Virus record (IMG/VR): IMGVR_UViG_3300036784_000146
Coordinates: 79,611-143,610 of that record
Strand: one strand, 5' to 3'
Source of the DNA: a virus
Lineage: Duplodnaviria > Caudoviricetes
Length of the DNA: 64,000 bases
In this document: piece by piece, positions 5,987 to 63,000 of the stretch
How positions within the stretch are numbered: the first letter of the stretch is position 1
How the letters are laid out: every line of letters begins with the position of its first letter
Notes under the pieces: generated by a model
What the model was told of the DNA's origin: nothing
What the model saw: only the letters and a program-made list of their open reading frames with translations
Databases searched by the model: none
Program-made: the position numbers and the translations under genes

Positions 5987-6805
5987 ATGTCAGATGTTTT
6001 GCCGGTCACCCGGCTCACACCTCAAAGCATCCAGGCCGTTCGCATGGAACTTGGGCCGGGCGGTCAGACTGCCGGTAAGATCGCCGCACTACTGGCGATG
6101 CTGATGAATCCTGCACTTAACCTGGGATACACAACCGAGAGCGCCACCGACCTAGCGCAGTACAACGGTGGCTGGCGAATTAAAATTTTGCGTGGTGATG
6201 ACGCTGAACTCATTTCCTACACGGGGGATTGGATTGTTGTCACCGACGCACTCTACGATGACACCAATGGGTGGCGGCTACAGAAGACGAGCCGTGTCCA
6301 CATCTACGGCGTATCGGCCGGAATGTCCGGTACCGCAGTCGATTTCGTTAACACATTCAGCGCGAACACTCCATTGATCTGGGATGCGTTGGCGACCGCA
6401 CCCGTGGCCACGCCGTTGGATAATCTCTCGGCGCAGCTCACGTTCAAGCAGCCGCTCAGCGCGAACGGCCCGTGGACTTACCAGATCGCCAGCGGTCCCG
6501 GCACAGCCGGAGCCTTCAGCGAGCCCGACGAGCAGGGCAACGTCACCGTGGTCATCACCGGCTTGACCGACCAAGAGCAGTGCGCGTGGACGGTCCAGGT
6601 CACCGCCTCGCAGTACACCGGAATCACCGGCACGTCGGCAGCAAGCAACACAATCACGGCGGTTACCGTATTGCCGACACCGGCCGTGCAAGCGGCCGAT
6701 GTTGTTCCTGACATATCACAATTCAGAGGACCGAACCGGGCACCGCGCGTTGCCCCGCCGACCGCACCGCCCACACCGCCGACCACACCGATCATGGTGG
6801 TTTAG
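5987..6805 (+). CDS. Putative minor tail/virion protein with a C-terminal Fn3/Ig-like region
   Basis: AGGAGG RBS; 272 aa; beta-rich 'TVVITGLT...WTVQVTA...SAASNTIT' pattern; tail-module context. Confidence 0.6.
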   Translation: MSDVLPVTRLTPQSIQAVRMELGPGGQTAGKIAALLAMLMNPALNLGYTTESATDLAQYNGGWRIKILRGDDAELISYTGDWIVVTDALYDDTNGWRLQKTSRVHIYGVSAGMSGTAVDFVNTFSANTPLIWDALATAPVATPLDNLSAQLTFKQPLSANGPWTYQIASGPGTAGAFSEPDEQGNVTVVITGLTDQEQCAWTVQVTASQYTGITGTSAASNTITAVTVLPTPAVQAADVVPDISQFRGPNRAPRVAPPTAPPTPPTTPIMVV

Positions 6806-9273: not shown

Positions 9274-11016
9274 GTGAGCAAGACTCCCGATCAGATAGCC
9301 CAGCAGATCCTGGCCACCCTGGCCCAGACGATGCCGACGCTGTCGTGTGCGATTGGCACGCCGGAGCGCAAAATCATCGACGCCTGCGCCGAACAGATCT
9401 CGACCGCGTCCATCGACACCTATCTGGTGGGTTCGTTGCTGGACATCGACACCAAGGCCGGGGCCGAACTCGAACAGTTCGTCGGCATCTTTGGTTACGG
9501 CAGGCTGTCGGGCAAGCCAGCTCAGGGCACCGTGCGGGTCACCCTCACGGTGGCCTCGACCTCCGACTACACCATCAGCCAGGGCGTCACCTTCTACACC
9601 GGGACCGGCGTGTCGGGGCTGACCACCCAGTTGTACTACTCGGCCAACCAGAGCGTGGTATTGCCAGCCGGTGACTATTCGGTAGACGTCCCGGTCACCT
9701 GCACCACCGTCGGCGTGGCTGGCAACGTGCCGCCGGGCTCGATCACCAACCTGTCTTCGGCGATCGGCTCCTCTGCGGTCACCAACCTGCAGGCCATGAC
9801 CGACGGTACCGACCCCGAGAGCGACGATCAGCTGCGCCAGCGGTTCAAGGACACCTTCCTGCGCAACGTCGCGGGCACCGCCGACTGGTATATCGCGCTG
9901 TGCCAGCAGAACAACGCGGTCACTCGGGTCGTGGTCTTCGGGCCCACCGCGCTTTACACCACCCAGATCGCGGCGCCCTCCACCACGCTGGCGTTGCCGG
10001 TCGACCAGGACGTCAAGTACGTGTGGCCCGACCAGACGAGCTGCTTCATCAACCTGGGCCAGCCGACCGAGACCTTCTACGCCGAGAACGACGACTACGT
10101 CTTGTCGACCGGCATCTCGCCGGTGTTCACCACCGTGTCCTCCGGTGCGATCAGCCCCGGCGACATCGTCGACTTGGAGTTCCAGTACACCCCGGTGTGC
10201 TCGCGCAACGACCCGGCCAACGGGATCGCCAACAAGGTCGACGTCTTCTGCGACGGCATCGCGCCCTTCACGGTCACCGAGCGCAGCGTCATCGACGGCA
10301 CCGAGCTGTCTTCGGAGTCCGGCGACCCGTTCTACACCGGCAACTTCATGCGCCTGGGATCTACGGGTAGCCCAGTGGCCACCAACCGCTACACCCGGCT
10401 GGGCAACGTCCCGCTGGTCACCTTCCCGCCGACGCTGACCGTGGGCGGCGAGATCTATACCCTGGGCACCCACTACTTCGTGATCCAGGACATCACGCTG
10501 TTGCAGGGCTCGCGACTGGAAGCCACCGGCATCGAGTGGGATTCGTCCGGCCCGGCCACCGGCGCCGAGCTGACCTTGGAATACGTCTACAACCAGGTGC
10601 CCGAGGTGCTCGACAACGTGATGACCACCTCCAAGCAGCTGACCACCGACGTGATGGTGCACCAGGCCCAGTACGTCTACCTGCAGCCCTGCCTGAACAT
10701 CGAGTACGACCGCAGCTACTCCCCGGCCACCGTCAATGCCGCTGTGGCCACCCGGCTGCAGAGCTACATCGCCGGGCTGCCGTTCGGTTCGCAGATCAAG
10801 TTCTCGGTGCTGTGCTCGGTGATCGGCCAGGTGTTGGGTGTGGTCGACGTCAAGGTCACCAGCAGCACCGATAACCCCGACGTCTACGGGATCCAGGTGT
10901 TCGCCAACTCCGAAGACATCGCCCCCCTCAGCGTGCAGGCCACCGACTTCAAGCTCGACGACAACCAGGTCGCTTACTTCCTGGGCTCCATCATCACCCG
11001 GACGGCGGCGCCGTAA
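9274..11016 (+). CDS. Baseplate J/gp47 family protein
   Basis: 'VPVTCTTVGVAGNVPPGSIT...VTNLQAMTDGTDPESDDQLRQRF' is a baseplate J signature. Confidence 0.9.
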   Translation: MSKTPDQIAQQILATLAQTMPTLSCAIGTPERKIIDACAEQISTASIDTYLVGSLLDIDTKAGAELEQFVGIFGYGRLSGKPAQGTVRVTLTVASTSDYTISQGVTFYTGTGVSGLTTQLYYSANQSVVLPAGDYSVDVPVTCTTVGVAGNVPPGSITNLSSAIGSSAVTNLQAMTDGTDPESDDQLRQRFKDTFLRNVAGTADWYIALCQQNNAVTRVVVFGPTALYTTQIAAPSTTLALPVDQDVKYVWPDQTSCFINLGQPTETFYAENDDYVLSTGISPVFTTVSSGAISPGDIVDLEFQYTPVCSRNDPANGIANKVDVFCDGIAPFTVTERSVIDGTELSSESGDPFYTGNFMRLGSTGSPVATNRYTRLGNVPLVTFPPTLTVGGEIYTLGTHYFVIQDITLLQGSRLEATGIEWDSSGPATGAELTLEYVYNQVPEVLDNVMTTSKQLTTDVMVHQAQYVYLQPCLNIEYDRSYSPATVNAAVATRLQSYIAGLPFGSQIKFSVLCSVIGQVLGVVDVKVTSSTDNPDVYGIQVFANSEDIAPLSVQATDFKLDDNQVAYFLGSIITRTAAP

Positions 11017-20120: not shown

Positions 20121-20157
20121 CCCAAACCCAGCTGAAACCCTGGCGTCTTGGGGCTTC

Positions 20158-20211
20158 CCTAGGAATATACCTGTGAGGTAAACTGTTCCTGTAAGTGGAA
20201 GGGAGACACAC
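20158..20211 (+). promoter_or_regulatory. Repeated early promoter/operator, copy 2, plus the GGAGACACAC start motif
   Basis: CCTAGGAATATACCTGTGAGGTAAACTGTTCCTGTAAGTGGAAGGGAGACACAC. Confidence 0.75.
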
Positions 20212-20214
20212 GCC

Positions 20215-21045
20215 ATGACCACCACAATGAAGTACGCCCCCAACGGCAAGACCTACGAGCTTCACCAGTACGAGGACCCGTACCCCGACAAGGGCGCGCG
20301 CGACCGTATTCACCGGCGCGATGACTGCGGGCGCTGCGGCGGCTCGGGCATCTACCGCTGGCACACCTACTACGGCGAGGCGTCCGGCGGCTGCTTCGGC
20401 TGCTGGGGCACCGGCAAGATCGAGCGCAGCTCGGCCGTGTCGACGCTGCGCAAGCACGCCAAGCAGGAGGCCTTGTGGGCCGAGTACGGCGACGAGCTGC
20501 GGGCCTACCACGACGAGCAGGGCGAGATCGCCCGGGCCGCCCAGAGGGCCGCCGAGTTCGCCGAGCACTGGGACGAGGCGCACGCCGAGCAGGACCGCCG
20601 AGCCGCTCTGGTCCAGGGCTTCCTGGGTGAGATCGGCGAGAAGGTCGCCAACATCCCGGTGACCATCCGGTTCGCCAAGTACAACGAGGGTGCCTGGAAC
20701 CGCTCGGCCACCATGTTCATCATCGCCGAGACCGACTCGGGTCAGATCATCAAGATCTCGGGATCCAGCCAGAGCCTGTTCGGCTTGGAGCGGGGCCAGG
20801 AGACGGTGATCCTGAGCGCCAAGGTCAAGGACCACGGCGAGTACCAGGGCCAGCAGCAAACCATCCTGTTCCACGTGAAGATCGACGACTTCGACAAGCG
20901 CGCGGCGCGCTGCATGGCCTACGGCATCACCGAGTGGGAGGACGCCGTCGACCGCGAGATGCGGCCCGAGGAGCGCGAGCGTTTCGAGGCCTACGTCGAG
21001 GCGCAACGGGCCGAGTACGAGGACGAGCTGTTGGGAGCGTCATGA
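20215..21045 (+). CDS. Zn-finger (CxxCxGxG x2) plus OB-fold-like hypothetical protein
   Basis: CGRCGGSG and CFGCWGTG motifs; C-terminal 'AKVKDHGEYQGQQQTIL' OB-like strand pattern. Confidence 0.7.
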   Translation: MTTTMKYAPNGKTYELHQYEDPYPDKGARDRIHRRDDCGRCGGSGIYRWHTYYGEASGGCFGCWGTGKIERSSAVSTLRKHAKQEALWAEYGDELRAYHDEQGEIARAAQRAAEFAEHWDEAHAEQDRRAALVQGFLGEIGEKVANIPVTIRFAKYNEGAWNRSATMFIIAETDSGQIIKISGSSQSLFGLERGQETVILSAKVKDHGEYQGQQQTILFHVKIDDFDKRAARCMAYGITEWEDAVDREMRPEERERFEAYVEAQRAEYEDELLGAS

Positions 21046-21577: not shown

Positions 21578-21897
21578 TGAAGAAAGTCCTTCTGGCGCTG
21601 GCCGGGCCGATCATTGCCCTGCTGCTGGCGCCGACAGCCCACGCTGACGTCTTCGACGTCTGCCCCGGCGGTCACGCCGGTGTCGTCGGCGGCCATACCA
21701 GCTGTACGTTCGCCAACATCGTCAGCCAGGTCTACTTCGCCACCCGGTCCAGTCAGTTCGTTGCCTACTCGCCGGTCACCAACCAGAGCTATGTGATGAC
21801 CTGCGTGGGCAGCTACCCGGCCTACTTCACCGACGGCAGCGAACGCATCTCGACACGCTGCTACGGCGGGGATGGTGCCGAGGTGGTGCTTTGGTAG
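21577..21897 (+). CDS. Small secreted Cys-containing protein
   Basis: Signal peptide MKKVLLAL...APTAHA-D; TSCxFA motif typical of small mycobacterial exported proteins. Confidence 0.7.
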   Translation: MKKVLLALAGPIIALLLAPTAHADVFDVCPGGHAGVVGGHTSCTFANIVSQVYFATRSSQFVAYSPVTNQSYVMTCVGSYPAYFTDGSERISTRCYGGDGAEVVLW

Positions 21898-21900
21898 GCG

Positions 21901-21942
21901 ATTAACCTATCAGGTAAACTTATAACTGGAAGGGAGACACAC
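21901..21942 (+). promoter_or_regulatory. Repeated early promoter/operator, copy 3 (divergent), plus start motif
   Basis: AACCTATCAGGTAAACT...TGGAAGGGAGACACAC-ATG. Confidence 0.65.
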
Positions 21943-22149
21943 ATGAGCGACATCCAGATCCAGAGTCATGACACAGGGAAGGAGCCTCAAGGTCCCACCT
22001 GGACCACCGACGAGGCCACCCGTGATTTCGAGTTCATCGGGTTCTTGGCCCCCTTCGTGATGGTCAAGCGCCGCTCCGACGGCAAGCGCGGCTCGTTGGA
22101 GTTCAAGCACAGTCCGCGCGTCTACTTCGACTTCAAAGAGGAGGAATGA
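21943..22149 (+). CDS. Hypothetical phage protein
   Basis: 68 aa; follows the repeated promoter and RBS. Confidence 0.65.
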   Translation: MSDIQIQSHDTGKEPQGPTWTTDEATRDFEFIGFLAPFVMVKRRSDGKRGSLEFKHSPRVYFDFKEEE

Positions 22150-25843: not shown

Positions 25844-26264
25844 AGTACACGCTTTGGACGCAGCGCCGAGTATATCTCAGGCCTGCCCGATTCTGAAAGG
25901 GCACCCCCGGCGCTTTCTTGGGCAAGTTCCGCCATCTAAACCGAACCGCTCAACAACCGGCCTGATAACTGCAGCATTCAGACCATCCCGCTCCACCTCG
26001 TGTCTATTCGGACCCGGGGCTACCGGTGCTGCTGTGGGATCGCTTTTTGCCCATTTCAAGCCGCCACCGCGTGGGGGAGGAGGGGGGTTTGGGGGGAGGA
26101 GGGGGCGTGGCGGGGCGCGGAGCACAATGAGGGATTGCTTTTAGACGACCGGAGTCGTCAGACCCTCAAGATAGGGTCTCCCACCAGGCAGCAAACCCCC
26201 AGCAAACAGGCTGGCTTTAGACCTCCATTAGGTGTAAATTAGAGGTCGGAAGGAGACACACACT

Positions 26265-27794
26265 ATGGAGTTCACCCCCACAGCAGAGCAGCAGGCGGTC
26301 ATCGATGCCGCACAGACCGGGGCCAACCTGGTCATCCAGGCCGGGGCAGGAACCGGCAAGACCTCAACCCTGCAGATGGTCGCCGAGGCACGCCCGCGCG
26401 TGAGCCTCTACGTGGCCTATAACAAGTCGATCGCCACCGACGCGGCCACCAAGTTCCCCTCGCTGGTGAAGTGCAAGACCTCCCACTCGCTGGCGTTCGG
26501 CGCGGTGGGGCGCAAGTTCAGCCACCGACTCAACAGCGCGCGGCGCCCGTCGTGGGAGCTGGCCAAGGACATGGGTCTGGGCTGGCTGAAGCTGGGCCGT
26601 GACATCCGGGTGGCACCACACCAGCAGGCCCGCATCGCGGGCGACACGGTGCGCCGGTTCTGCTACTCGGCCGACGACGAATTGGGAGCGGCCCACGTCC
26701 CGTTCCAGAACGGCATCGCCGGGCGCAACCACAACGACCTGGTTGCCCGGATCCTGCCGCTGGCCCGCGACTGGTGGAACGACGTCAACAGCATCGATGG
26801 CACGATGCCCTTCGAGCACGATCACTACCTGAAGATGTGGGCCTTGGAGGATCCCGACCTGTTCGTGGACATCGTGTTCCTCGACGAGGCGCAGGACTCC
26901 AACCCGGTGCTGGCCAAGCTGATCGCCGCCCAGGAAGCCCAGCAGATCGTGGTGGGGGACTCCTGCCAGCAGATGTACGCCTGGCGGGGCGCGGTGGATG
27001 CCCTCTCCGGCTGGAAGGACTCCAAGGAGCTGTTCCTCAAGCAGTCCTGGCGGTTCGGGGAGGCCATCGCCGATGAGGCCAACAAGTGGCTGGCCCAGCT
27101 GCCCACTCCGTTGGAGCTGATCGGCAACCCGCACCTGGACTCGACGCTGGACGAGCTGGAAGACCCGGCCGCCATCCTGTGCCGGACCAACGCCGGGGCG
27201 ATGGGCGCCGTGCTGGGATCCATGGAGGCCAACAAGAACGTCTCGCTGGTGGGTGGCGGGGAGCAGCTGGCCCGCCTCGCCAAGGCATGCGCGGACCTGC
27301 GGGCGGGCAAGAAGACCTCCCACCCCGAGCTGTTCGCCTTCGACTCCTGGGACGAGGTGGCCCGCTACGCCAAAGAGGAGGCTTCCGGATCCGACCTGCG
27401 CCCGCTGGTGAACCTGATCGACGAGCACGGCACCGACAAGATCATCGAGGCCACCCAGAAGCTGGTGAGCGAGGCCAACGCCGACGTGGTGGTGTCGACG
27501 GTCCACAAGGCCAAGGGCCGCGAGTGGGACACGGTGGCCGTGGCCGGGGACTTCTTCGAGCCGCGTTCGGTGGAGGGGGCCGACCCGGTTATCGGCGAGT
27601 CCGAGGCGATGGTGGGCTACGTGGCGGTGACCCGGGCCAAGATGGTGCTGGACCGCTCCAACCTGGCCTGGATCGACGACTTCGTCGACCCGCCGGAGGT
27701 CGACCCGGTGGCCGAGGACGACTACGACGAGGGCATCGATCCCCAGGTCCTCGACGAGATCTACGCCCTTCCCTCCGCCGAGAAGGAGGACTGA
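26265..27794 (+). CDS. UvrD/Rep-like SF1 helicase
   Basis: AGAGTGKT, LDEAQD, VGDxxQxxYxWRGA, SWRFG, STVHKAKGREW, YVAVTRA. Confidence 0.93.
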   Translation: MEFTPTAEQQAVIDAAQTGANLVIQAGAGTGKTSTLQMVAEARPRVSLYVAYNKSIATDAATKFPSLVKCKTSHSLAFGAVGRKFSHRLNSARRPSWELAKDMGLGWLKLGRDIRVAPHQQARIAGDTVRRFCYSADDELGAAHVPFQNGIAGRNHNDLVARILPLARDWWNDVNSIDGTMPFEHDHYLKMWALEDPDLFVDIVFLDEAQDSNPVLAKLIAAQEAQQIVVGDSCQQMYAWRGAVDALSGWKDSKELFLKQSWRFGEAIADEANKWLAQLPTPLELIGNPHLDSTLDELEDPAAILCRTNAGAMGAVLGSMEANKNVSLVGGGEQLARLAKACADLRAGKKTSHPELFAFDSWDEVARYAKEEASGSDLRPLVNLIDEHGTDKIIEATQKLVSEANADVVVSTVHKAKGREWDTVAVAGDFFEPRSVEGADPVIGESEAMVGYVAVTRAKMVLDRSNLAWIDDFVDPPEVDPVAEDDYDEGIDPQVLDEIYALPSAEKED

Positions 27795-30700
27795 TGGGGA
27801 TCTGCAAGCTGGAATCGTTTCGCTACGAGTGCGACCGCTGCGGGGATGTCGCCGAGCATCCCGATCACAAGGCTGCCGTCGAGCGGGGCTGGATGCAGTT
27901 TCCGCCCATCGACGGTCTGCGGGTTCGGGTGTTGTGTCCCACCGACGCCACGAAGCTGGACCGGTTCCTGCAGGGCAATAAGACCCCGTGCAGCATCAAC
28001 TTCAACGACAACGAGGAATCACGCTGGCTTCGGAGCTGTGGTCAATAGCGTCTGGCGTTAGAGACAAATTAGAGGTAAATTAGAGCCCATGACTGAGACA
28101 CACACACGACCCGCGCACGGGGGCCTTGGGCCCCCTCCCACCTGGTTCATGGTGCGCAAGATCGACACCATGTACCGGGAGGGCTACGAGGTCAGCTACC
28201 GGACTCTTGACGTTTTGCATCGACACAAGTCCCGCCACGTGTTCGAGGACTTCTCCACCCGGGAAGCCGCCGTCGACCACGGCCTCGCCCAGGGCTGGGT
28301 TCATGTCAAGACTTGGAAGGAAGCCCGAGAGCTGGCCCAGCCCTGGATTGATGCTGGTGCCGCCGAGCGTGACCGGCGCAAGCTGGCCAGGGAGAACACC
28401 ACCAGCGTCGTGATCGGCACCCACGAGACGCGGCGGTTCTACGTCGACACCCAGCTGGCCGACCAGTTGCGCAAGCTGCTGTCCGACGCGGCAGACTCCG
28501 ACGGCGTGGTCCGTGATTTCGGCGACGGCCGGGTGTGGACCGGCTGATGGCACTCAAGGCATACCGGATGGGCACCGATGACGAGGTGTTTCCTGGCGAT
28601 CAGGTGGAGAACCCTAACAGTGGCCGCATCGGGATTTTGGTCAACTGCCGAAGGGCCGCCCGACCGGGTAGGGACGGGTCGGTGTTTGTTTACTGGCCCG
28701 ACGACGGCAGCTCACGGCGGTACTACGACCACGTGTTCGGTCTCGATGTCCAGGAGGCGAGCTGATGATTCGAGTAACGCTTCAACAGGAGGCGATAACC
28801 AGGCGGATTATCTGCCGGGTGAACGACAGTCCCCGCAACATCTCGATGTTGTCCCTGCGCGGTGCACAGCGTGAGATTACCGGCGCTCTCATCTCTGAAG
28901 GATGCTCTCCGACAGGATTGTGGCAGCGTGTTGAGTCGGACAGCGGTCAAATAGAACGCTGGTTCGACTCGTGACCAACTCAGACAAGGTCATCGAGAAT
29001 CGCATCCGGCGCAAGCTGGCTCGACGTCATGGCTGGACCTTGCACAAGAATCCCCGGCGCGATCCGCTGGCTTCCGACTACGGCAGCTACGTCATTCGCG
29101 ACGAGCACGGTGCCATAGTGGATACCTACGTCGACCTCTTTGCGTTGGCAGTGTGGGAGAACCAGTGATGGCGCCCAACTTCTGCTCGAATTGCGGGCAT
29201 CGGATCTACCAGCACAACGCGGACGGGTGCGAGCACGTCGACATCACCGAGGCCGAGGGCGAAGGTCCTCTTCAGCGCCAGATGGTCACCGTGCGCACCC
29301 CGTGCGACTGCAAGCAACCTCACCCGTTGATGATCGGAGCCGACACATGATGTACCGCAACTACGAGACCCCCGTCTACGCCCGTCCGCTGTTTGAGTCG
29401 GAGTCGGTGCGCGTCGTCTACGTGCCGGTGCCGATGCAGGCCCCCACCCGCTCCCCGAACAACGTGGTGCGCTTCATGGCCTGGCTGCTGGCAGCTGGTC
29501 TGGCGTCCTTCGTCATCACCATGGCGATCATGATGTTGATCGCGTTCTCCGGAGGGTTCGGCTGATGTGGTACGAGAACCACGCCACCCTGGTGGCGTTC
29601 GGCCGGGTTATGACCAAGGTCGACGGCTGGGGCGCCGAGGAGGTGCTTGACTACTTCGAGGAGCCCTGGAAGTGGGAGCCCGAGCACACCGACTGGTCGC
29701 ACAGGGGGCGCCCGCACGGGCCCGAGGACGACGGCTGGGAACTGTTCGTTAAGGCGATGGAGAAGCTATGACCGTCAAGACGACCACGACGCACACACTG
29801 GTGTGCGACCGCTGTCCGCGTGAGCAGCCGGTTGACTTCGACCCGATGCACACCGATCTGTCCAACGGCTGGCAGTGGTGGACGCGCCGAGGAGTTGAGG
29901 GGTGCTTCGGCACCACCCAGCGTCTGCTTTGCCCGGATTGCACAGAACGTCTGACATTGTTCTTGGAGGGCCACACGACCGCGCGCGGCCGCGTGTTCAA
30001 CCGTGAGGAGGCCGATCGTCGTTACCGGGCGCATCGGGCCCAAGAAAAGCACGACGAAGACGAAAGGTACGCGCCGTGGAACTGATCAAGGGGGAGACAT
30101 AATGCCAGCAGGATTCGGGAGAGCCCACGGGCGGCGCAGCCGCGGCAACCTGGCCCACACCGGTGGCAGCGAGCACAAGCACGTCACCGTCACGAGCCAC
30201 CGCGACACCCCCGACGGGTCCTGCTGGGGCTGCTACTACCACAAGCGGGAGCCTTGGGAGCACGAGCCCGGCCAATGCCCGGTGTGGTACGCCCGCGCTT
30301 CGGACTTCAGCGGTGCCTGATGCGCGTCGAGTGGAAGTGCATGACGATGGGCTGCTCCAAGGGCATCCACGTCGGCACAGTCTGGAAGCCCAGCCGGGAG
30401 GCCAAGAAAGCCAACCCGGGGGCGACCGAGTACATGATCGCCGTGCAGCTGGGTCTGTGCACCGATCCGCTGCCGCTAGACCGCAGCCACTTCGCCCTGG
30501 TGGCTATGGATGACCGGCCCGGGGTGCTACAGGTGCATCCCTGGACGGAACTGAAGGTAATCGATTAAGGAGACACACACCATGAGAAAAGTCCTACTGG
30601 GGGTGATGGCGGCCCTCTCGATATCGGGATGCGCCAAGACGACACCGGCCGCCCCACCGGCCCCACACGACGGCGGCAATTTCTTCAAGTACTACGAGTA

Positions 30701-31614
30701 CGTGCTGACGAGTCCCCATCCCGACGACACCTCCTGCCAGCCCAAGGATCTACACGACCTACTGATCGCGCCTTGCGACGGGCAGCCGTGAGGGTCCGCG
30801 ACGAGGCGGCCTGGCAGGAACGCCGGGCGGCGCTGACCGAGGACGGCGAGATCGGCCAGGAGTTCCTGAAGTTCGTCGAGGACTGGGCCGACACGGCCGA
30901 AAGAGACTACGACGACCAGACGAGCACCACCGACTGGATCCGCCAGGCGTTACCCAAAGTCGAGGAGAGGCACGGCCGAGTGGACTTCATGTTCCTCGGC
31001 CAGATGCTGGCGGTGCTGGCCGAGCACTGGGAATACGGCCCCCAGCTGATGAGGGGTCTCACCCCCATCGAGCGCCGCCTGGTGGAAGACCTGACCTTGT
31101 TGAAGGTCGCAGTGGAACAGAAGAAAGCAGAGACACATGGAAACCTTTGAGACCCTGGCGGTCAGCGTGCTGCTGATCGTCTGGGCGGTCACCGTCTTCC
31201 TGATGGTGCACTGGCGCCACGTGCTGGACGACCCCAACTACTACTGGCGCCTGAAGCAGGAAGAGCGCGACTGGTTCGCCTGGACGATTGCGGTAAAGGG
31301 CACGGTGTCCGCCAATGACTAGCGTGCCCCAGATCCCCCAAGACCTGCCCGCTCGGCTGGACAGCTTCGAGCTGACTATCAGGATGGATGCGACCCTGAC
31401 CGTAAACGGTGACCAATGGTTCAAGCCTGGCGCCGAGGGCTCCATGAAGTGGAAGGGCTACGAGTGGTCCGGTCAGTGGGTCGACCCGATCCCCACCGAG
31501 GCCGAGCTGCGCACGGCCTACCAGCTGATCCAGTCCGGCATCCTGGCGCCGGTGCTCCAAGAGGTGATCACCGCCGCGCAGGCCCGGATCTCGGAGGCGA
31601 GGAAGGGCGCCTGA
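27794..31614 (+). other. Cluster of about 14 small translationally coupled hypothetical genes: 27794-28048, 28089-28547, 28547-28765, 28765-28974, 28971-29168, 29168-29350, 29347-29565 (membrane), 29565-29771, 29768-30085, 30102-30320, 30320-30568, 30788-31150, 31137-31322 (membrane), 31315-31614
   Basis: Back-to-back ORFs with TGATG/ATGA overlaps; several have CxxC motifs; no recognisable family. Confidence 0.6.
30582..30791 (+). CDS. Small lipoprotein
   Basis: Signal peptide with an ISG-C lipobox; AAGGAGACACACAC start motif. Confidence 0.65.
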   Translation: MRKVLLGVMAALSISGCAKTTPAAPPAPHDGGNFFKYYEYVLTSPHPDDTSCQPKDLHDLLIAPCDGQP

Positions 31615-31682
31615 TCAGTACATTAGGTATGTCTTAGGGGTAAGTTATAGTAAGATTGTAGGAACGAGAGGAGACACACGAA

Positions 31683-32408
31683 ATGCCTGAGCAAAGCGAG
31701 GTCGTGTTAGCGGCCGTAAGCGAGCTGGTCAAGGCGTCTGGCGGCGATGCCGTCGTGGCGCTGCAGGCCTTACTCGAACAAACACAGCGCGATCTGGTCG
31801 TCGCCGAGAAGTCGACGGTGGCCGGTCGCAAAGCAAAATACCGCAAGATGTGGGAGGACTTCGAGTCCGACACCAACGTCGAGGATCTGGTCGGGACGGC
31901 CGAGAAGTTCAACGGCCTGATCGACCGCATCGCCAAGAACCACTTGGCGATGCCCGACGGGATCATGACGGCGCCGCAGGCTCAGGGCTTCATGGAGGAG
32001 CACCTGGAATCCCGCGACGTCACCGAGGTCCTGGATGCCCGCAAGGAGCTGCGTAAGGCCGCTGTGTTCGCCCATATCGATGCGGTGCTGGAAGCGCAAG
32101 GGGTCGCCGACCCCGGCAACGCTAACGGCGAGCTGGAAGTCCCCGAGTGCGGCATGAAGTTCTCGCGCGAGGGGGCCGGGCTCGGAGATCCCGAGCTGGA
32201 CGAAGGCAAGTTGCGCGTGGCGTTGGGCGAGGCGGTCTGGGCACAGATCAGCGATAAGGAGATCATTCCGGCTCGCGTGGAGCTGTTGCTGAACAAGACT
32301 CGGCTGCTCGACCTGGCTAACCGGGATCCACAGATCCTGGAAAAGCTGCGCGACTGCCTGATCCCCGGCAAGCCCAAGTCACCGCGTCTCAACGTCCGGA
32401 AGTTGTGA
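31683..32408 (+). CDS. Hypothetical phage protein
   Basis: 241 aa; follows an AT-rich promoter-like gap (31615-31660) and the GGAGACACAC motif. Confidence 0.7.
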   Translation: MPEQSEVVLAAVSELVKASGGDAVVALQALLEQTQRDLVVAEKSTVAGRKAKYRKMWEDFESDTNVEDLVGTAEKFNGLIDRIAKNHLAMPDGIMTAPQAQGFMEEHLESRDVTEVLDARKELRKAAVFAHIDAVLEAQGVADPGNANGELEVPECGMKFSREGAGLGDPELDEGKLRVALGEAVWAQISDKEIIPARVELLLNKTRLLDLANRDPQILEKLRDCLIPGKPKSPRLNVRKL

Positions 32409-54222: not shown

Positions 54223-54270
54223 GGGAAGTTGGGGTGAATGCGGCTACAATCGGATTCACCCCAATTTTCC
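54223..54270 (+). terminator. Stem-loop closing the array
   Basis: TTGGGGTGAAT (54229-54239) pairs perfectly with ATTCACCCCAA (54254-54264), extendable to about 17 bp with G-U pairs. Confidence 0.7.
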
Positions 54271-54294
54271 TACAATGAAGGGAGACACACCACC

Positions 54295-55320
54295 GTGAAA
54301 GTCGCCGAGCTGGCAGAGAATCTAGCCAAGCGCAAGGAGAGCCGTCGGATCGTGCGGTTGGGGGACCTGGCCATCCCTGACGACTGTTCATCGATCACGA
54401 TTCCGGCTTCCGAAGACACTCCGGCCGCCCAGTTTTTGCTCGACGAGAAGACTCTTCGGGTGCTGGCCAAGTTTTTGAAGCTGCCTGCGACCTATCTTGA
54501 AGAATGCCCGCCAGATTTTAGGTCGACGACATTGAGGTACTGGCGCGACCGTAAGGGCCATGTCGATGTCGTGCTCGAAGCCGTCGACGACAACGTGACC
54601 GCCCTCTACAGCCCTGGCTTGATGATGCTGCCGGTCGCGCGGGTCGCGCGCATGATCGAGCGCACTTTCAAGCCAGAGGACGATATCCGCCTGCTGCTGC
54701 GCGATGAGCAGGTGTTTCATGTCGACATCACTTCTGACGATTTCAAGATCGAAATCCCCAATCCTCGTCGCATCCCCGGCCGCCCTGAGGTCGGCGACAT
54801 TACCTGCGGCGGCATCCGCTTTTTGGCGTCCCCCAGCAAGGTCAAGGCGCCCAGCGTGTCGCGGTTCCTTCATCGTTTGGTCTGTACCAACGGGATGGTG
54901 ACCGATGCGGCCGAAGACAAGATCGTGATCAAGGGATTGAGTGTGGCTGAGGTCATCGAGTCGATGGAAGAGGCTGCCGATCGGTTGCTGTCCAACATGG
55001 ACGAGCATCTGGACCGCTACAAGGACACGGCTCTTCTGGCTGTGCCTGGTCATCCTTTGTCCTTCGCCGAACAGCTGGGGCACGAGTTCAATGTTCCGCA
55101 GCGTCAGCTGCATGCCATCCTCGACCGGGTGCGTCAGCTCCCCGAGGAGGGCGCCACCGTTTTTGACGTCGCCCAAGCATTCACTTCGGTCGCCAACGAA
55201 GTGCACAACTACGCCGACCGCACCCGCCTACAGACACTGGGTGGCTCATTGGCCCTGGAAGCCCCCAGAATGATCGAGCGTTGCCACACTTGCCAGACTC
55301 TTCTGGTCGAGCACGGTTGA
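54295..55320 (+). CDS. DUF932-like phage protein
   Basis: 'FLHRLVCTNGMV' motif and C-terminal 'TVFDVAQAFTSVA'; GGAGACACAC start motif. Confidence 0.7.
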   Translation: MKVAELAENLAKRKESRRIVRLGDLAIPDDCSSITIPASEDTPAAQFLLDEKTLRVLAKFLKLPATYLEECPPDFRSTTLRYWRDRKGHVDVVLEAVDDNVTALYSPGLMMLPVARVARMIERTFKPEDDIRLLLRDEQVFHVDITSDDFKIEIPNPRRIPGRPEVGDITCGGIRFLASPSKVKAPSVSRFLHRLVCTNGMVTDAAEDKIVIKGLSVAEVIESMEEAADRLLSNMDEHLDRYKDTALLAVPGHPLSFAEQLGHEFNVPQRQLHAILDRVRQLPEEGATVFDVAQAFTSVANEVHNYADRTRLQTLGGSLALEAPRMIERCHTCQTLLVEHG

Positions 55321-55405
55321 CCTAATCGGTCTCTAACGTTGGTGTAGGTGAGATGTCACACTCAGATCTTGATGAGGGGCAGTCGGAACGCTGCTAAGGT
55401 GAAGC

Positions 55406-55450
55406 AGGCGCCGGGTACCGGATTCGTGTGTGTCTCCTTCCCCGGCGCCT
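55406..55450 (+). ncRNA. Candidate antisense sRNA hairpin whose loop is complementary to the GAAGGAGACACACAC start motif
   Basis: Perfect 10-bp stem AGGCGCCGGG/CCCGGCGCCT; 25-nt loop containing GTGTGTGTCTCCTTC; intergenic. Confidence 0.5.
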
Positions 55451-55508
55451 CCTAAATTTCCGTCCGGTCTAATCACTCCCGTCGCATTCCCACGATAGGG
55501 TTAGGTAC

Positions 55509-55913
55509 GTGGCACACCCCGCACCAGACGTCGAACCGTATCCATCCGAGATCCCGGCCCTCAAGGGCGCGATGGAGAAGCTGAACAAGCGATTCCAGAA
55601 CAAGGTCTTCGACGAAGACACCATGATGCAGTTCATGCAGGCCGCCCGCGAGATCTTCGGCGAGGCTGGCTGGCTCATCGGCGTGGACTGGATGGACGCC
55701 CGCGTCCCGGGCTTACCCGCCGAGATGGCGCCGTCGACCGGCACCGTCATCCCTCGTGTGGTCATCCAGGGGCGCGTCCACCACGAATCCGAAACCGACC
55801 ACGACCGGCTGCGCCACGAGATCGTGTCCGGCATGGCCGACGGCGTGAAGGGCTACGTGCGCGAGGGCAGCTCTGACCTGCATGAGGACCCGATTTCAAA
55901 GACCATCTTCTAA
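55509..55913 (+). CDS. Hypothetical protein
   Basis: 134 aa; GC3 bias. Confidence 0.65.
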   Translation: MAHPAPDVEPYPSEIPALKGAMEKLNKRFQNKVFDEDTMMQFMQAAREIFGEAGWLIGVDWMDARVPGLPAEMAPSTGTVIPRVVIQGRVHHESETDHDRLRHEIVSGMADGVKGYVREGSSDLHEDPISKTIF

Positions 55914-56693: not shown

Positions 56694-57526
56694 TTGATTC
56701 TCGATTGGGTCTGTCATCCTCCTACTTCGTTACTGGCTCAACAGCTGCGTCGGGCCATTCGAGCACGCCGCCGGGCGTTTCCCAACGGGCAGCGGTTCAT
56801 CTACAAGGACCTGCGTGAGCTATGGGCGGCCGAGCATCACGTGGTGCTCAGCCATCACACCGATACCAGCTGGCAGCACTGGGCTAAGCACCCCGAGCAC
56901 GGCTGGATGCCAATAGGCATCTACCCGGCGCGTGAGGAAGCGACAGCGAGCGCCGAAGGCTACCAGTGGGAGCCCGAGTGGCCGGAGCCAGATCCTGAGC
57001 CCGGCGTCTACGTCCTGGCAGGCTGGCCGCGCGAGGACGACGACGTCTCCTATACGGTGCGCACCAGGTGTGCCAGCAAGAACAGTGCCATTGCGGTGGC
57101 CGATGCCCTGCGGTCGGTGGGCATGGTCACCAGGCACGAGGAGATCAAATCAAGTGAGTGAGAACCTCAAGTCAAAAGAGACCACCATCCAGATTTGTGC
57201 CGGATGCGGCTTGCAGCCCATCGTGGTGGTGGACCGCTACGCCCAAGATCCCGAGGACGCTCACCAGTGCGGCTGGCCCATGCGCGTGGGCCCTACCCGG
57301 TACTACTGCAGCCGGGACTGCTTCGAGGACGATCATCCGCGATTCCGCTGCGACCACTGATGGGGGGCTACGCCGAGAAGCACAAACAGAACCAGGCCGA
57401 ATGCGCCAACACGCGGTGTTCGGAGAGGGGATGTACCCTGCGGGTGTTCCACGGACAGGTAAACTGGTATTGCTCGTGGCACGCCGAGCAGATCGATCAA
57501 TTCCAAGGGAGACACACACCGAATGA
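56694..57526 (+). other. Three small hypothetical genes (about 56694-57161, 57154-57360, 57360-57526); the last two are Cys-rich
   Basis: Coupled ORFs; starts uncertain. Confidence 0.45.
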
Positions 57527-58158
57527 TGCCCACCCTCGATGAGCTAGCCCTCAAACATGGGACCGACAAGGCCTCTGATGGGCACGGTTACACGGCCGTC
57601 TACGAGAAGCTCTTCGGTCACCTACGCGATGAGCCGGTGAAGCTGCTAGAGCTGGGTGTCTACCAGGGTGCCAGCCTGGGGACGTGGAACGAGTACTTCA
57701 CCAACCCCGACAGCGACATCATCGGGGTGGATGAGAACATCCTCCGAGTGAGCGGGGAGGTCCTCGGCCCGCGTTGCTGTGTCTATCGCAGCGACCAGAC
57801 CGAGATCCCGCTGCAGCTGCAGGGCAACATCTCGTTTGACATCATCATCGACGACGCCAGCCACATCTCCTCAAAGACGATCGCCAGCTTCATCACGTGG
57901 TGGCCCAAGTTGAAGCGAGGTGGCATCTACGTCGTCGAGGACATCGTCACCTCGTACTACATCGACAGCGCCGAGAGCAGCGCCAACCCCGAAAAGCCGG
58001 TGAGCAATCCCTATCGCAGGACCGCGATGCAGTGGTTCCGGCGACTGGCCGACCAAGTCAACATGGGAGACATCCCGTCGCGCTATCACGTCGGCGACTA
58101 CAACCTCGCTTCAATCACCTTCCGCCCCAACATGGTCATCGTGGAGAAGGCAAAATGA
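57523..58158 (+). CDS. Class I SAM-dependent methyltransferase (sugar O-methyltransferase-like)
   Basis: 'HGTDK...H.Y...YE', 'LLELGVYQGASL..W..YF', 'FDIIIDDASH', 'LK.GGIYVVED'. Confidence 0.88.
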   Translation: MMPTLDELALKHGTDKASDGHGYTAVYEKLFGHLRDEPVKLLELGVYQGASLGTWNEYFTNPDSDIIGVDENILRVSGEVLGPRCCVYRSDQTEIPLQLQGNISFDIIIDDASHISSKTIASFITWWPKLKRGGIYVVEDIVTSYYIDSAESSANPEKPVSNPYRRTAMQWFRRLADQVNMGDIPSRYHVGDYNLASITFRPNMVIVEKAK

Positions 58159-60049: not shown

Positions 60050-63000
60050 CCGAAGAATTGGACAAACTGCCGGGCACCGTCACCTTGGAGTGGGCGTGCT
60101 CGCAGTGTGGCGCCCTCCGGCGCACCCGCTGCACCGACATCACCGGCGCCGTCTACGCGTTTCGCCCGGCGGGCTGGACTCTGGGTGCTGGCATGGCCAG
60201 CTGCGATAGATGCACTCCGAGCACAGCCCAGCTCCGCGAGCAACAGAACGGCTCGGCGACGATGCGCGAACGCATCTCCGGTCTGCGCGCCGGTGGGGCT
60301 GCCGGAGAGGCCCAGCCCGATTACGGCATCCGCCAGGCGCCTCAGCCGGTTGCGTACGGCGGCAATGGCGCCGAGGACCACATCCTGCGCGACTCCGAGG
60401 GCAAGCCATTGGCCATCATCGGCCCCGGCGGCGGAGCTGGTCGTGAGGGTGTGCCCGGGACCTACATCACTGGCGGGGCCGGTGAGGGTGGAACCCCTGG
60501 CACTTGGAATGCCACCACCATGCACACACCCGTTGAGGGTGAGCCCATGCCTAACCCCACCCCAGGGCCCAACGGCCCCAAGCGTGTCCAGCAAGGACCA
60601 GTCCAGCAGGCCCAGCCAGCCACCGAGATCCACACCCGTGACTTCCGCCCGGGTGGGGGCAATGTGGTCTTCCAGGACACCCGCGACTCCGAGTTCCTCG
60701 GGCCCCAGAAGATCGATGCAGGTGTGCCCTCCCTGGGCTCCAAGGTCTGCATCGGATGCCGTCACGAGATCAACGACGGCACGGTCTCGGGTGTAGCAGA
60801 AGCATGGCGCTGGGCACAGAACCCAGAGAACGGCCACGAGCGCGGACACACCGACTGCTTGGCGAGGATCGGCCGATGACCATCGACCCAGACACCCAGT
60901 GCGGCCTGTACCGCAAGTACGAGGTGCGCAAGGTCAAGCAGGAGCCCGACCAGCGCGGTGAGATGGTCGACGTGCTCGTCGATCCCGGTGAGTGCTTCGT
61001 CCTGAACCACAACGACCCGCACGCCATCGGTGCCTTGCGCATGTATGCCCTCACGTGCAAGGACCAATACCCTCAGCTGGCCAAGGACCTGAATGCGATG
61101 GCCGATCGCTGGGTTGAAGAGCTGAGGCCTTCATGAGCTGGAACTGGATGAACTTCATCGAGGGTGTGGCCGGAGGTGCCTTCATCGGCATCCCGCTGGG
61201 CCTCCTGCAGTATCGGCTGGTCGCCAAGATCCGTCGGTGGCGCCTGCCCAGGATTCCCGAGCCCCTGAGCAGAGAGCAGTACGTGGCGCTACCCGAGAAG
61301 GAGAAGCAAAAGCGCCGCGCTCAGTTCGAGGCCTACTGCGACTTCTACGACCCCCACTACAGCCGATGACCCTGCACCCCTGCGCCAAGGACATCAGAGA
61401 GCGCTGGTTCAGCCAGCAGGCCTCCACCTTGGGCACCAAATGGGCTGCCACCACCCTGGTGGATATCTGCCCCTTCTGCGGCGACAAGGCAGACACGCAC
61501 CGTACGGGCACGCACACGATCACCGCCGACGACGGCATTCTGACCCACATCTACCCCTTGGGCATGACCTTCCCGGTGTGGTTCTGCGACCAAGAATTAC
61601 CTACAAATTAGCCCTAACGTTGTGCTAATCTAGGGGGGCTGGCACGTTTGGTTTGGAGCAAAAGGAGACACACACCATGAACTTCACCAGGTTCGGCAAC
61701 GCGTTCGTAGCCCAGCTCTCGGTCGCCAGTGGAGAAGAGAAAGACACCCTCTACGTGGTCAGCCTGTACAACGATGGCTGGTCGGCCAACTACCGCACTG
61801 CCGACATGGACCACCCCCAGGAGGTCCAGCCCTATGGCTTCGGCTTCGGCCAGTCCGGTCTGGATCAGGCCAGGGCGGCCTGCGAGGCACACTTCAGGGA
61901 GAAGGTGTCATGAGCGGAGACCCCAGTAAGGTGTTCGCGGACGAGGTCACCGCCTCCGACGAGGTGATTGTCATCCCGGCCAAGAATGTAGCAGTGGGCT
62001 ACCGGCTGGCCGGAGGCATCTTCGTCAACCAGTACAGCGGGGGCATGCTGGACGGCTGGCGGGTCACCAGCGTCGAGCCCCAGGAGCAGTTTTCGCACGT
62101 CAAGATCAACGCCAAGGAGCCCGACAGCTCCAACTCGGTGGTGCTCTACCTGGATCCCGGCCACGAGGTGGCCATTTACCGCCAGCTGATCAGCACCAAG
62201 GACCAGGAGTACGAGCAGCACAAGGCCGAGGTGACTCGGTGGTCGTCGGAGAAGACGAGGAACGGTCTTACCTCATCCTTCGCCAACCTACTGTTGGCCC
62301 TGTGCGAGCGGGTGGAGAAGCTGCAGTCCCACCAGCATGACCAGACCGACGTGAACGGCACGTTCTACGGTGTCACGACCAGTCTTCCCAGGATGCAGGA
62401 CTGATGGACGCCGAAACCATCGTCATCGGTGTGGTGGGCACCTTGCTGTTCGCCGTCACGTTCTTCACCTTCGGCTGGGTCAAGGGCGTCCAGTACGCGT
62501 TCACCCATCCCCGCAAGGTCCTCGACACCCTGGACAAGCTGGAAGCCGAGGAGAAGCGCAAGCGGGGTGAAGAGCCGTGAGCTATTCGGAGTTCAGCGAC
62601 TACTACGTCACCTACGATGACGCGGGTGTCGACTACGTGGTGCTGGGCCGCACCGAGCCGGTGGCCAAGAAGGAGCACACCTGTTCGTGCTGCCGCAAGA
62701 CGATCCAGCCCGGCCAGCGTTATCGCCGTTACCGACTGATCGTGGAGGGTGACCCCGGCGTGCAGAAGGAGTGCCCGGACTGCATGGCCATCTCGGACGG
62801 GCTGGCGGTGATCTCATGATCGTGCCCATTCATGGCATCTGCCCCAGCTGCGGTGAGCGCAAGCTGTTCGCCGGATCGGGCACCGGCACCCTGCAGTGCC
62901 TGAACGGTGAGTGCAAGCGTCCTGAGGCGGCCAACGAGATCCTCAACGACCCGATCCGCGATCACCTGCTGGTGCTCAACGACCGCAGCTGGACCGTGAT

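Follow-up and report, generated by a model that had tools for sequence, protein, structure and literature searches.

A phage hairpin with a conserved loop antisense to a repeated translation-start motif, a candidate multi-target regulatory RNA

The locus and its hairpin

The hairpin lies in the genome of an uncultured, actinobacteria-infecting phage of 144 kb (a 143.6-kb IMG/VR record; 63.6% G+C; ∼96% complete by estimate), and the window, i.e., the whole stretch of DNA analyzed here, is the final 64 kb of that record. Kinship to large actinobacteriophages is distant and was seen at the protein level (33 to 43% identity), the named kin being Mycobacterium phages Phrappuccino, Myrna, and Bxz1-like phages, Gordonia phage Pupper, and Rhodococcus phage Finch. 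No DNA-level relatives were found in the phage collection or in public phage records, and a query of IMG/VR with a single protein returned no close relative.

The hairpin sits in a 188-nt gap, and both flanking genes are on the + strand. The upstream gene (phrog_1362; ORF 54279 to 55320, with its true start at GTG 54295) encodes a DUF932-like protein and is itself one of the predicted targets, as GGAGACACAC at 54281 precedes its start. The downstream gene (phrog_2779; 55509 to 55913) encodes a 134-amino-acid protein of a PHROG without assigned function, for which there was no Pfam family, no PDB sequence match, and no Atlas match; its AlphaFold model (mean pLDDT of 73) had no Foldseek match at an E value of ≤0.001. 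Neither ARAGORN nor Rfam found tRNA or tmRNA genes in the window. In Cluster C mycobacteriophages (Rizal and Myrna), the syntenic gap between the homologous genes is filled by tRNA-Gln and tRNA-Asn. Another large-loop hairpin, with a TTTT tail, is found at 54229 to 54264, ahead of the DUF932-like gene.

The 5′ stem arm, AGGCGCCGGG (55406 to 55415), pairs perfectly with the 3′ arm, CCCGGCGCCT (55441 to 55450), and encloses a loop of 25 nt (55416 to 55440), all on the + strand. Direct reading and a stable fold both bear out the perfect 10-bp stem and 25-nt loop that a sequence-only reading of this DNA had described; its term “GC stem” is correct as to perfect pairing and slightly overstated as to composition, since 1 of the 10 pairs is A-T and 9 are G-C. 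The stem is present in both the minimum free energy and the centroid structures of RNAfold, and the hairpin alone has a dG of −25.2 kcal/mol (z = −3.55). Within the loop, the 5′ part (55416 to 55425) is variable among relatives, and the 3′ part (55426 to 55440), GTGTGTGTCTCCTTC, is the antisense of an extended ribosome-binding site (RBS) motif. In 8 of 8 folds this antisense block lay inside the loop, unpaired and accessible as expected of a seed. Weak internal pairing is possible between the anti-Shine-Dalgarno (anti-SD) bases CUCC and G-rich bases of the loop 5′ part (GGA/UCC), and in the longest complementarities 2 or 3 bases are buried in the stem.

The stem is followed by a moderately T-rich tail, CCTAAATTTCCG (55451 to 55462), which may be a weak or partial intrinsic termination signal; the tails of relatives are T-rich to differing degrees. 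A scan for consensus promoters and terminators called nothing in the gap; a terminator call was precluded by the loop length of more than 8 nt and the short T run. Against 4,227 Rfam models, including 6C RNA, C4 antisense RNA, and mycobacterial small RNAs (sRNAs), the window had no match at the gathering threshold, and in a permissive scan of 55250 to 55560 the best subthreshold scores were 11 to 13 bits, compared with cutoffs of 38 to 55. Open frames are frequent in the GC-rich DNA of this phage, and two cross the hairpin (a 35-amino-acid ORF on the + strand and a 47-amino-acid ORF on the minus strand). Coding readings of both were rejected: the frames are not conserved, as the loops differ in length by numbers not divisible by three and indels occur on either side.

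Conservation, promoter elements, and strand

Relatives were found via their DUF932-like proteins, which are 45 to 79% identical to that of the window, on contigs from metagenome assemblies and IMG/VR. The hairpin unit is present on ten other phage contigs, and the comparison set is 11 sequences including the window, several of them short fragments; contigs L015 and L016 end before the expected place of the unit. Five of the ten (L011, L086, L012, L013, and L014) belong to a close clade whose stem core is common with the window. The others (L087, L088, L091, L115, and L096, of which L091 is part of the relative G001 and L096 of G002) have different stems. The stem arm is kept in 11 phages in the form of at least five different stem sequences (GGCGCCGGGG, GCCGGGGTCCCGG, ACGGTGCCCGA, AGGCGTCCGAG, and AGGCGTCGGAG) plus one 15-bp stem. 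Exact-pattern scans of viral and metagenome collections gave chance matches only, without the 5′ arm, and a full-hairpin pattern search of IMG/VR gave nothing.

Alignment of the gap shows four kinds of conserved block: the stem arms, the last 9 to 13 bases of the loop, a TGnTAnnnT element before the stem, and a second −10 element before the downstream gene. Outside these blocks, the 5′ side of the loop included, sequence and length vary freely. Among the six close sequences, the loop shows no change in its 3′ part, which stays GTGTCTCC-like in the distant ones; loop length ranges from 13 to 30 nt across copies, with differences of 1, 11, and 12 nt among close relatives.

In the model-fitted alignment, 97.6% of cells pair, 4 of the 11 pairs are changed on both sides, and compensatory changes keep the pairing; values this high were attained in only 2 or 3 of 500 shuffles, and pairing in slid controls was 46 to 55%, statistics that lean towards structure because the alignment was fitted to it and that cover neither L088 nor L096. 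The stems of these two are entirely different and give independent support for pairing. When the six close copies were used to build a covariance model, it recovered L091 at an E value of 2e-10 and L087 at ∼1e-3. L087 has a shortened loop, GUGUGUGU, with CCC next to it within the stem, and its 4.3-kb fragment showed no starts bearing the motif.

The hairpin unit travels with the phrog_2779 gene, to which it is tied in every relative whose DNA extends that far. In L088, L091, L096, and L115, an SD sequence and a start codon follow 10 to 25 nt after the stem, so that the mRNA of the next gene would begin with the hairpin. The next upstream gene is on the opposite strand in L087, L088, L091, and L115, and the DUF932-like gene of L088 has a separate terminator hairpin of its own.

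An extended −10 promoter-like element, TGCTAAGGT, lies at 55392 to 55400 on the + strand, 5 nt before the stem base, and predicts an RNA start at ∼55406 to 55408. All 10 of the tabulated copies have TAnnnT at a distance of 4 to 7 nt ahead of the stem base, and 7 of them also have TGn; the inner three bases of the −10 vary by lineage, and the T, A, and T are fixed. By eye, the eleventh copy (L115) has TGTTAAGGT seven bases before the stem. Promoters dominated by the −10 element are usual in mycobacteria. As the −10 lies just before the stem, the RNA would start at the stem foot. Reading of the alignments of relatives revealed no comparable conserved promoter element on the minus strand. Four G·U pairs occur in total (in L012, in L087, and two in L096); these are valid only in a + strand RNA, as on the minus strand they would be A·C. 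Together with the conserved −10, they indicate that the strand of the hairpin RNA is +. As for a transcription unit of its own, the hairpin thus has a conserved TGnTAnnnT-type −10 upstream and a tail that is only moderately T-rich.

The second −10, TAGGGT, is followed after 7 nt by GTG (55496 to 55511, + strand) and is the predicted promoter of a leaderless start for the phrog_2779 gene. The CGATAGnnT-N7-GTG spacing is invariant in the aligned relatives, and the codons after the GTG are, by eye, conserved with synonymous changes.

Right after the stop codon of the upstream gene, a block at 55321 to 55360 (strand not assigned) is conserved in six relatives and is homologous to the divergent-promoter region of relatives. 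In L087, L088, L091, and L115, it separates the hairpin unit from a minus-strand operon, the first gene of which has the RBS motif at its start; this operon is absent from the window. The sequence-only reading had proposed a promoter for the + strand RNA at 55321 to 55345. The element exists and is conserved in relatives, and it is more likely to be part of a divergent-promoter region; the better candidate for the promoter of a + strand RNA is 55392 to 55400. The accompanying proposal of an RNA of ∼100 nt from 55350 is likewise replaced by a predicted start at the stem base and a length of ∼50 to 60 nt if the RNA ends at its own tail.

The repeated start motif and its match to the loop

In the whole genome, the 10-mer GGAGACACAC occurs 16 times on the + strand and once on the minus strand (a control pattern occurs 0 and 0 times), and the single minus-strand copy is the hairpin loop. 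All 16 + strand copies are followed within 0 to 5 nt by ATG, GTG, or TTG, and each opens an ORF; in the wider GGAGACAC set, the spacer from SD to start is 5 to 11 nt. None of these start codons follows the minus-strand copy for ∼60 nt, as had been noted from the sequence. The motif consensus, (G/A)AAGGAGACACAC, combines the SD core (AAGGAG) with a fixed ACAC or CA-rich spacer, and we take this spacer to have no complement in the 3′ end of 16S rRNA. Among ∼98 genes with GGAG before the start, the next four bases are ACAC in 14, and any other 4-mer occurs at most three times. Given this excess of ACAC after GGAG, the motif is regarded as an extended RBS.

Motif-bearing genes encode a DNA helicase, a UvsX/RecA-like recombinase, methyltransferase-like and DUF932-like proteins, and many small proteins without known function. 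At least three different promoter types stand ahead of them, or they are internal to operons, so that a single temporal class is not evident. The suggestion that the RNA acts as a temporal switch on a class of early genes therefore finds no support in the promoters, operon positions, or mixed functions of these genes.

When the loop was compared with the window at ≤3 mismatches, 9 matches were obtained versus 2.1 expected, and 0 of 100 shuffles reached 9. The best predicted target is the start of the helicase gene (gene 26265 to 27794; site 26248 to 26267, + strand), with 16 nt of perfect complement to the loop and stem edge. The 16-nt match claimed earlier before this gene (as UvrD) is an exact 15-mer at 26249 to 26263 and extends to 16 nt (26248 to 26263) only if two stem bases are counted; an exact 15-mer by chance is not credible. 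The search of the window also returned the shorter matches previously listed, of 14 nt at 30567 and 61662 and of 10 to 12 nt at 20202, 21933, 31670, 54281, and 57508. Apart from that of the DUF932-like gene, the corresponding predicted target starts, all on the + strand, are at 30566 to 30584 (gene 30582 to 30791) and 61661 to 61679 (gene 61677 to 61913), each with a 14-nt complement, and at 20199 to 20217 (gene 20215 to 21045, phrog_4095), 21930 to 21945 (gene 21943 to 22149), 31668 to 31685 (gene 31683 to 32408, phrog_2808), and 57505 to 57525 (methyltransferase-like gene 57523 to 58158).

Pairing of the loop with phage start regions, a check proposed with the original observation, was assessed by a genome-wide duplex scan. 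Motif-bearing start regions were the top partners, at −27 to −33 kcal/mol compared with a mean of −15 (standard deviation of 3.4). Between 16 and 20 start regions have 10 to 16 nt of perfect complement to the loop, a complementarity to multiple mRNAs beyond that expected by chance. A suspected “sponge” site at 28095 was rejected, as it consists of codons 2 to 6 of a leaderless gene.

Covariation of loop and motif in related phages, also proposed as a check, was found between lineages. The window's genome (G000) was compared with the whole records of two near-complete relatives, G001 and G002. Sense and antisense copies of GGAGACAC number 17 and 1 in G001, where the loop is the antisense copy, and 17 and 2 in G002, where it is one of the two; in both, the hairpin precedes the phrog_2779 gene. 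No hairpin precedes that gene in G003 (6 sense and 2 antisense copies), G004 (0 and 1), or G005 (4 and 0, near control counts). In G004 and G005 the flanking genes are present and the motif is not enriched.

In G000 and G001, where the start-site consensus is AAGGAGACACAC, GGAGACAC is followed by A at 18 of 20 and 11 of 14 sites, respectively; in G002, with the consensus GAAGGAGACACC, the following base is C at 15 of 20 sites. The loop reads GUGUGUCUCC in G000 and G001 and GGGUGUCUCCUUC in G002 and L088, and the two motif sites seen in L088 are both of the ACC type, as is its loop. Phages with GGAGACAC-AC starts have GUGUGUCUCC loops and those with GGAGACAC-CC starts have GGGUGUCUCC loops; at the RNA level, ACAC-type starts match GUGU-type loops, and ACC-type starts match GGGU-type loops. 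Each loop pairs best with starts of its own type (−25.7 versus −23.2 kcal/mol for the G000 loop and −23.6 versus about −20 kcal/mol for the G002 loop), and own-type start sites also give longer perfect complements. This covariation rests on essentially one lineage split, between the ACAC and ACC types, and is suggestive rather than decisive.

A candidate trans-acting RNA, its alternatives, and known systems

The comparative evidence makes it very probable that the locus specifies a + strand RNA hairpin that is functional and whose anti-RBS loop is under selection. A selected hairpin, a loop kept antisense to the motif, and covariation of loop and motif are what a multi-target anti-RBS RNA predicts. 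To this extent the central proposal of the sequence-only reading stands, without its “early” class. That the hairpin acts in trans, by pairing with motif-bearing starts, is a step further, and here the balance tips only a little in favor.

In the mechanism that we favor, a host-type extended −10 (55392 to 55400) would start transcription at the stem base, and the RNA would fold into a 10-bp GC-rich stem with a loop displaying 10 to 16 nt antisense to the private start motif (G/A)AAGGAGACACAC. In the window's clade, the RNA would probably end at the weak T-rich tail, after ∼50 to 60 nt, and the next gene would be transcribed without a leader from a separate promoter; in more distant relatives, this hairpin would instead open the mRNA of the next gene. 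Given the weak T tail and the lack of a terminator call in the gap, a discrete short RNA is not assured. The exposed loop would most likely pair, loop to linear RNA, with the unstructured CA-rich starts of ∼16 to 20 phage mRNAs. Such pairing would cover the SD and spacer, compete with the 30S subunit and lower its binding, and so tune the gene set jointly; pairing of the loop with both SD and spacer would also provide a reason for the conservation of the spacer. We infer from sequence that the RNA is made, where its 3′ end would be, that it may pair in trans, and what the sign and timing of its effect could be.

The main rival is a role in cis, as a 5′ element of the phrog_2779 transcript that would either protect it from decay or act as an attenuator or autoregulator through the anti-SD on its own SD, the other matches being a by-product. 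The unit always stands ahead of the phrog_2779 gene or its operon, the position of an SD and start codon shortly after the stem in L088, L091, L096, and L115 suits such a role, and the predicted transcription start at the stem base resembles that of known 5′ stabilizer hairpins. However, a stabilizer hairpin requires no specific loop sequence, and the six sequences of the window's clade have an invariant loop although their downstream gene is leaderless, is preceded by a conserved −10 of its own, and offers no SD for sequestration. In addition, the conserved GUGUGU/GGGUGU part of the loop has no complement in SD regions in cis, but it matches, and covaries with, the spacer of the genome-wide motif. 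As a role in the downstream mRNA cannot explain either the loop conservation in the leaderless clade or the spacer match, we consider it unlikely. Recognition of GTGTCTCC/GGAGACAC by a protein, at an RNA or DNA site that is operator-like or nut/put-like and of which the RBS-linked copies would be further instances, could account for a motif that is longer than an SD requires and has a conserved spacer, for a hairpin placed right after a promoter as in antitermination sites, and for the divergent HTH-like gene that adjoins the unit in L115. It is nonetheless improbable: an RNA-binding protein that reads a sequence would not also read its complement, a site in double-stranded DNA needs neither a covarying hairpin nor a 16:1 strand bias tied to start codons, and no candidate protein was identified.

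The GC-rich stem and somewhat T-rich tail, 86 nt after a stop codon, have a likeness to an intrinsic terminator, and the large-loop hairpin before the same DUF932-like gene offers a local parallel. The locus might accordingly do nothing but terminate transcription of the DUF932-like gene, the likeness of its loop to the RBS motif being functionless. Against this, four relatives (L087, L088, L091, and L115) have no codirectional upstream gene to terminate, and in L088 the DUF932-like gene is served by a separate terminator; a conserved −10 stands directly before the stem; and the loop is 25 nt in the window rather than 3 to 8 nt, with CCTAAATTTCCG in place of a run of at least five Ts. Across copies it is 13 to 30 nt long, conserved in sequence, and covarying, none of which a terminator requires, and we judge this explanation quite improbable. 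The least probable alternative, to which we give very little credence, assigns the feature to the minus strand, as a relic or live RBS of a minus-strand gene or as a minus-strand RNA with a decoy RBS loop. The minus strand does read as a perfect copy of the motif, and nearby minus-strand genes of relatives use that motif. Yet the lack of a start codon within ∼60 nt in the window is matched by the lack of a conserved one in relatives, the loop length differences of 1, 11, and 12 nt leave no reading frame conserved through the hairpin, L088 and L115 have a real minus-strand RBS separate from the hairpin loop, and the G·U pairs and −10 both indicate the + strand.

The trans-acting RNA proposed here, from sequence features, would work like two known regulators without being a member of the 6C or C4 family, for which there was no Rfam match. 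The 6C/B11 sRNA of mycobacteria and other actinobacteria uses unpaired C-rich loops to pair with the RBSs of many genes and repress them, reportedly without a chaperone (PMC10470900, citing Mai et al. 2019). It shares with our candidate a host phylum and the predicted use in trans of pyrimidine-rich hairpin loops on the RBSs of many mRNAs. In contrast to the single phage-encoded hairpin, 6C/B11 is host encoded and directs two C-rich loops at generic G tracts; the loop described here fits a phage-specific SD-plus-spacer sequence over 10 to 16 nt and covaries with it. The c4 RNA of P1/P7 blocks an RBS by complementary sequences displayed in loops (Citron and Schuster 1990, as reviewed in PMC12197685) and provides a case in which an RNA encoded by a phage regulates, in trans, an mRNA of that phage, the mode predicted here. 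Unlike our candidate, c4 arises by processing of a longer transcript, and its two target sites belong to a single operon (icd-ant), in temperate enterobacterial phages; in the present case, ∼16 to 20 dispersed targets are predicted for a single hairpin of a large actinophage with no sequence or Rfam similarity to c4. The likeness to intrinsic terminators ends at the GC-rich stem and T-containing tail downstream of a gene, as terminators do not share the loop of conserved sequence and 13 to 30 nt, the promoter element directly upstream, or the absence of a codirectional upstream gene in several relatives.

If the trans-acting model is correct, the hairpin would be a trans-acting regulatory RNA with a defined regulon, for which we know of no precedent among actinobacteriophages. 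It would present a compact case of coevolution between an RNA regulator and its target sites, and the hairpin might find use in mycobacterial genetics as a small orthogonal part for translational control. Should the model fail, the locus would still be a conserved, unannotated RNA element marking the start of a conserved operon.

Start motifs in mycobacteriophages have been described since 2011 without a known reader (PMC3203893). The start-associated sequence (SAS) of Cluster K phages is a repeated asymmetric motif that overlaps the RBS, in one orientation, a few bases before the starts of some nonstructural genes (Pope et al. 2011, PMC3203893); its describers did not decide between RNA and protein as its reader, and they recorded one reverse copy in K1 phages (PMC3203893). 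Its 13-bp consensus, GGGATAGGAGCCC, differs from (G/A)AAGGAGACACAC, and the two are analogous only in position and strand bias. For the motif described here, the candidate reader RNA, the predicted promoter, the strand, and a natural specificity pair (ACAC/ACC) are defined, which makes the question of the reader directly testable. A doubtful but broader possibility is that one lineage of large actinobacteriophages has a private translational code, in which a subset of genes would share one SD-plus-spacer word and one coevolving hairpin RNA of ∼50 nt would read it in trans. A whole gene set could then be switched at ribosome loading, and the same logic, of a recurring start motif with a single antisense copy in a hairpin loop, may explain the SAS of at least some Cluster K phages. 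The parallel is real in part of Cluster K, where the coupling of motif and antisense copy is loose, unlike that found here. Phages TM4, Amgine, Ximenita, and Marshawn have 12 to 18 forward SAS copies without an antisense loop. In phage Anaya, forward copies number 16 and there is a single reverse copy; the latter lies in an unannotated 385-bp gap, in a predicted 10-nt hairpin loop, and the region around it is conserved in 154 phages.

Probable leaderless gene starts

The phrog_2779 gene downstream of the candidate + strand hairpin RNA appears to be leaderless: at window positions 55496-55511 (+ strand), a −10 element (TAGGGT) is separated by exactly 7 nt from a GTG codon. The same layout, with invariant spacing, is found at the equivalent site in the five close relatives that carry the hairpin (L011, L012, L013, L014, and L086), where automatic gene calls begin at an internal ATG and omit ∼20 conserved codons of this gene. 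The start of a second probable leaderless gene lies at 28077-28107 (TAAATT, 7 nt, and ATG at 28089). Codons 2 to 6 of this gene read GAGACACACACAC, and the hairpin loop could therefore also pair just inside its coding region.

Promoter-like elements

The block directly following the stop codon of the upstream DUF932-like gene (55321-55360) is conserved and matches a divergent-promoter region in four more distant relatives with the hairpin (L087, about 1795-1840; L088, about 10925-10960; L091, about 6110-6175; and L115, about 2150-2205). In these relatives, the counterpart of the block faces a minus-strand operon, with the RBS motif present at the first RBS of the operon; in L115, the operon encodes a 133-amino-acid protein and an HTH_24-like protein. 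As the window lacks those minus-strand genes beside the block, the latter is possibly a remnant, or else a promoter of antisense transcription. On the other side of the DUF932-like gene, a perfect hairpin (54229-54264; 11-bp stem and 14-nt loop containing CTACAAT) is followed by TTTTCC and then by a second CTACAAT directly 5′ of the RBS of that gene, a layout that could combine a terminator with an overlapping promoter.

A motif of ∼21 bp, GGAATATACCTGnCAGGTAAAC, occurs in at least seven near-identical copies in the genome, in the window at about 20156-20183 and 21892-21919 and outside it near genome positions 23615, 26651, 27708, 28725, and 31159. All are on the + strand, with strong ribosome-binding sites 15 to 25 nt 3′ of the copies. 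These copies resemble promoters of a phage-specific class that a phage sigma factor may recognize. A sigma factor is annotated nearby in Phrappuccino, a distantly related Mycobacterium phage.

A predicted hairpin loop and small RNA genes

Cluster K1 mycobacteriophages have a single reverse-oriented start-associated sequence (SAS), located in an unannotated gap (Anaya [JF704106], L119, 59779-59979; L120 to L125 were also examined) and predicted to lie within a hairpin loop, CCUCCUAUCC. Among the Cluster K phages compared, this loop is kept in Anaya, Adephagia, Peanam, and Amelie and is not conserved in Amgine, Ximenita, Marshawn, and TM4.

The gap between the two genes flanking the phage hairpin appears to be a place where small RNA genes recur: between their homologues, the Cluster C mycobacteriophages Myrna (L089, 1543-1708) and Rizal (L090, 2234-2390) carry tRNA-Gln and tRNA-Asn. 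At least one tRNA gene of the phage itself probably lies outside the window: immediately 5′ of an RBS at genome position 28449, the sequence (about 28380-28445) terminates in a segment resembling the T-arm and acceptor stem of a tRNA (GGTTCGACTCC...).
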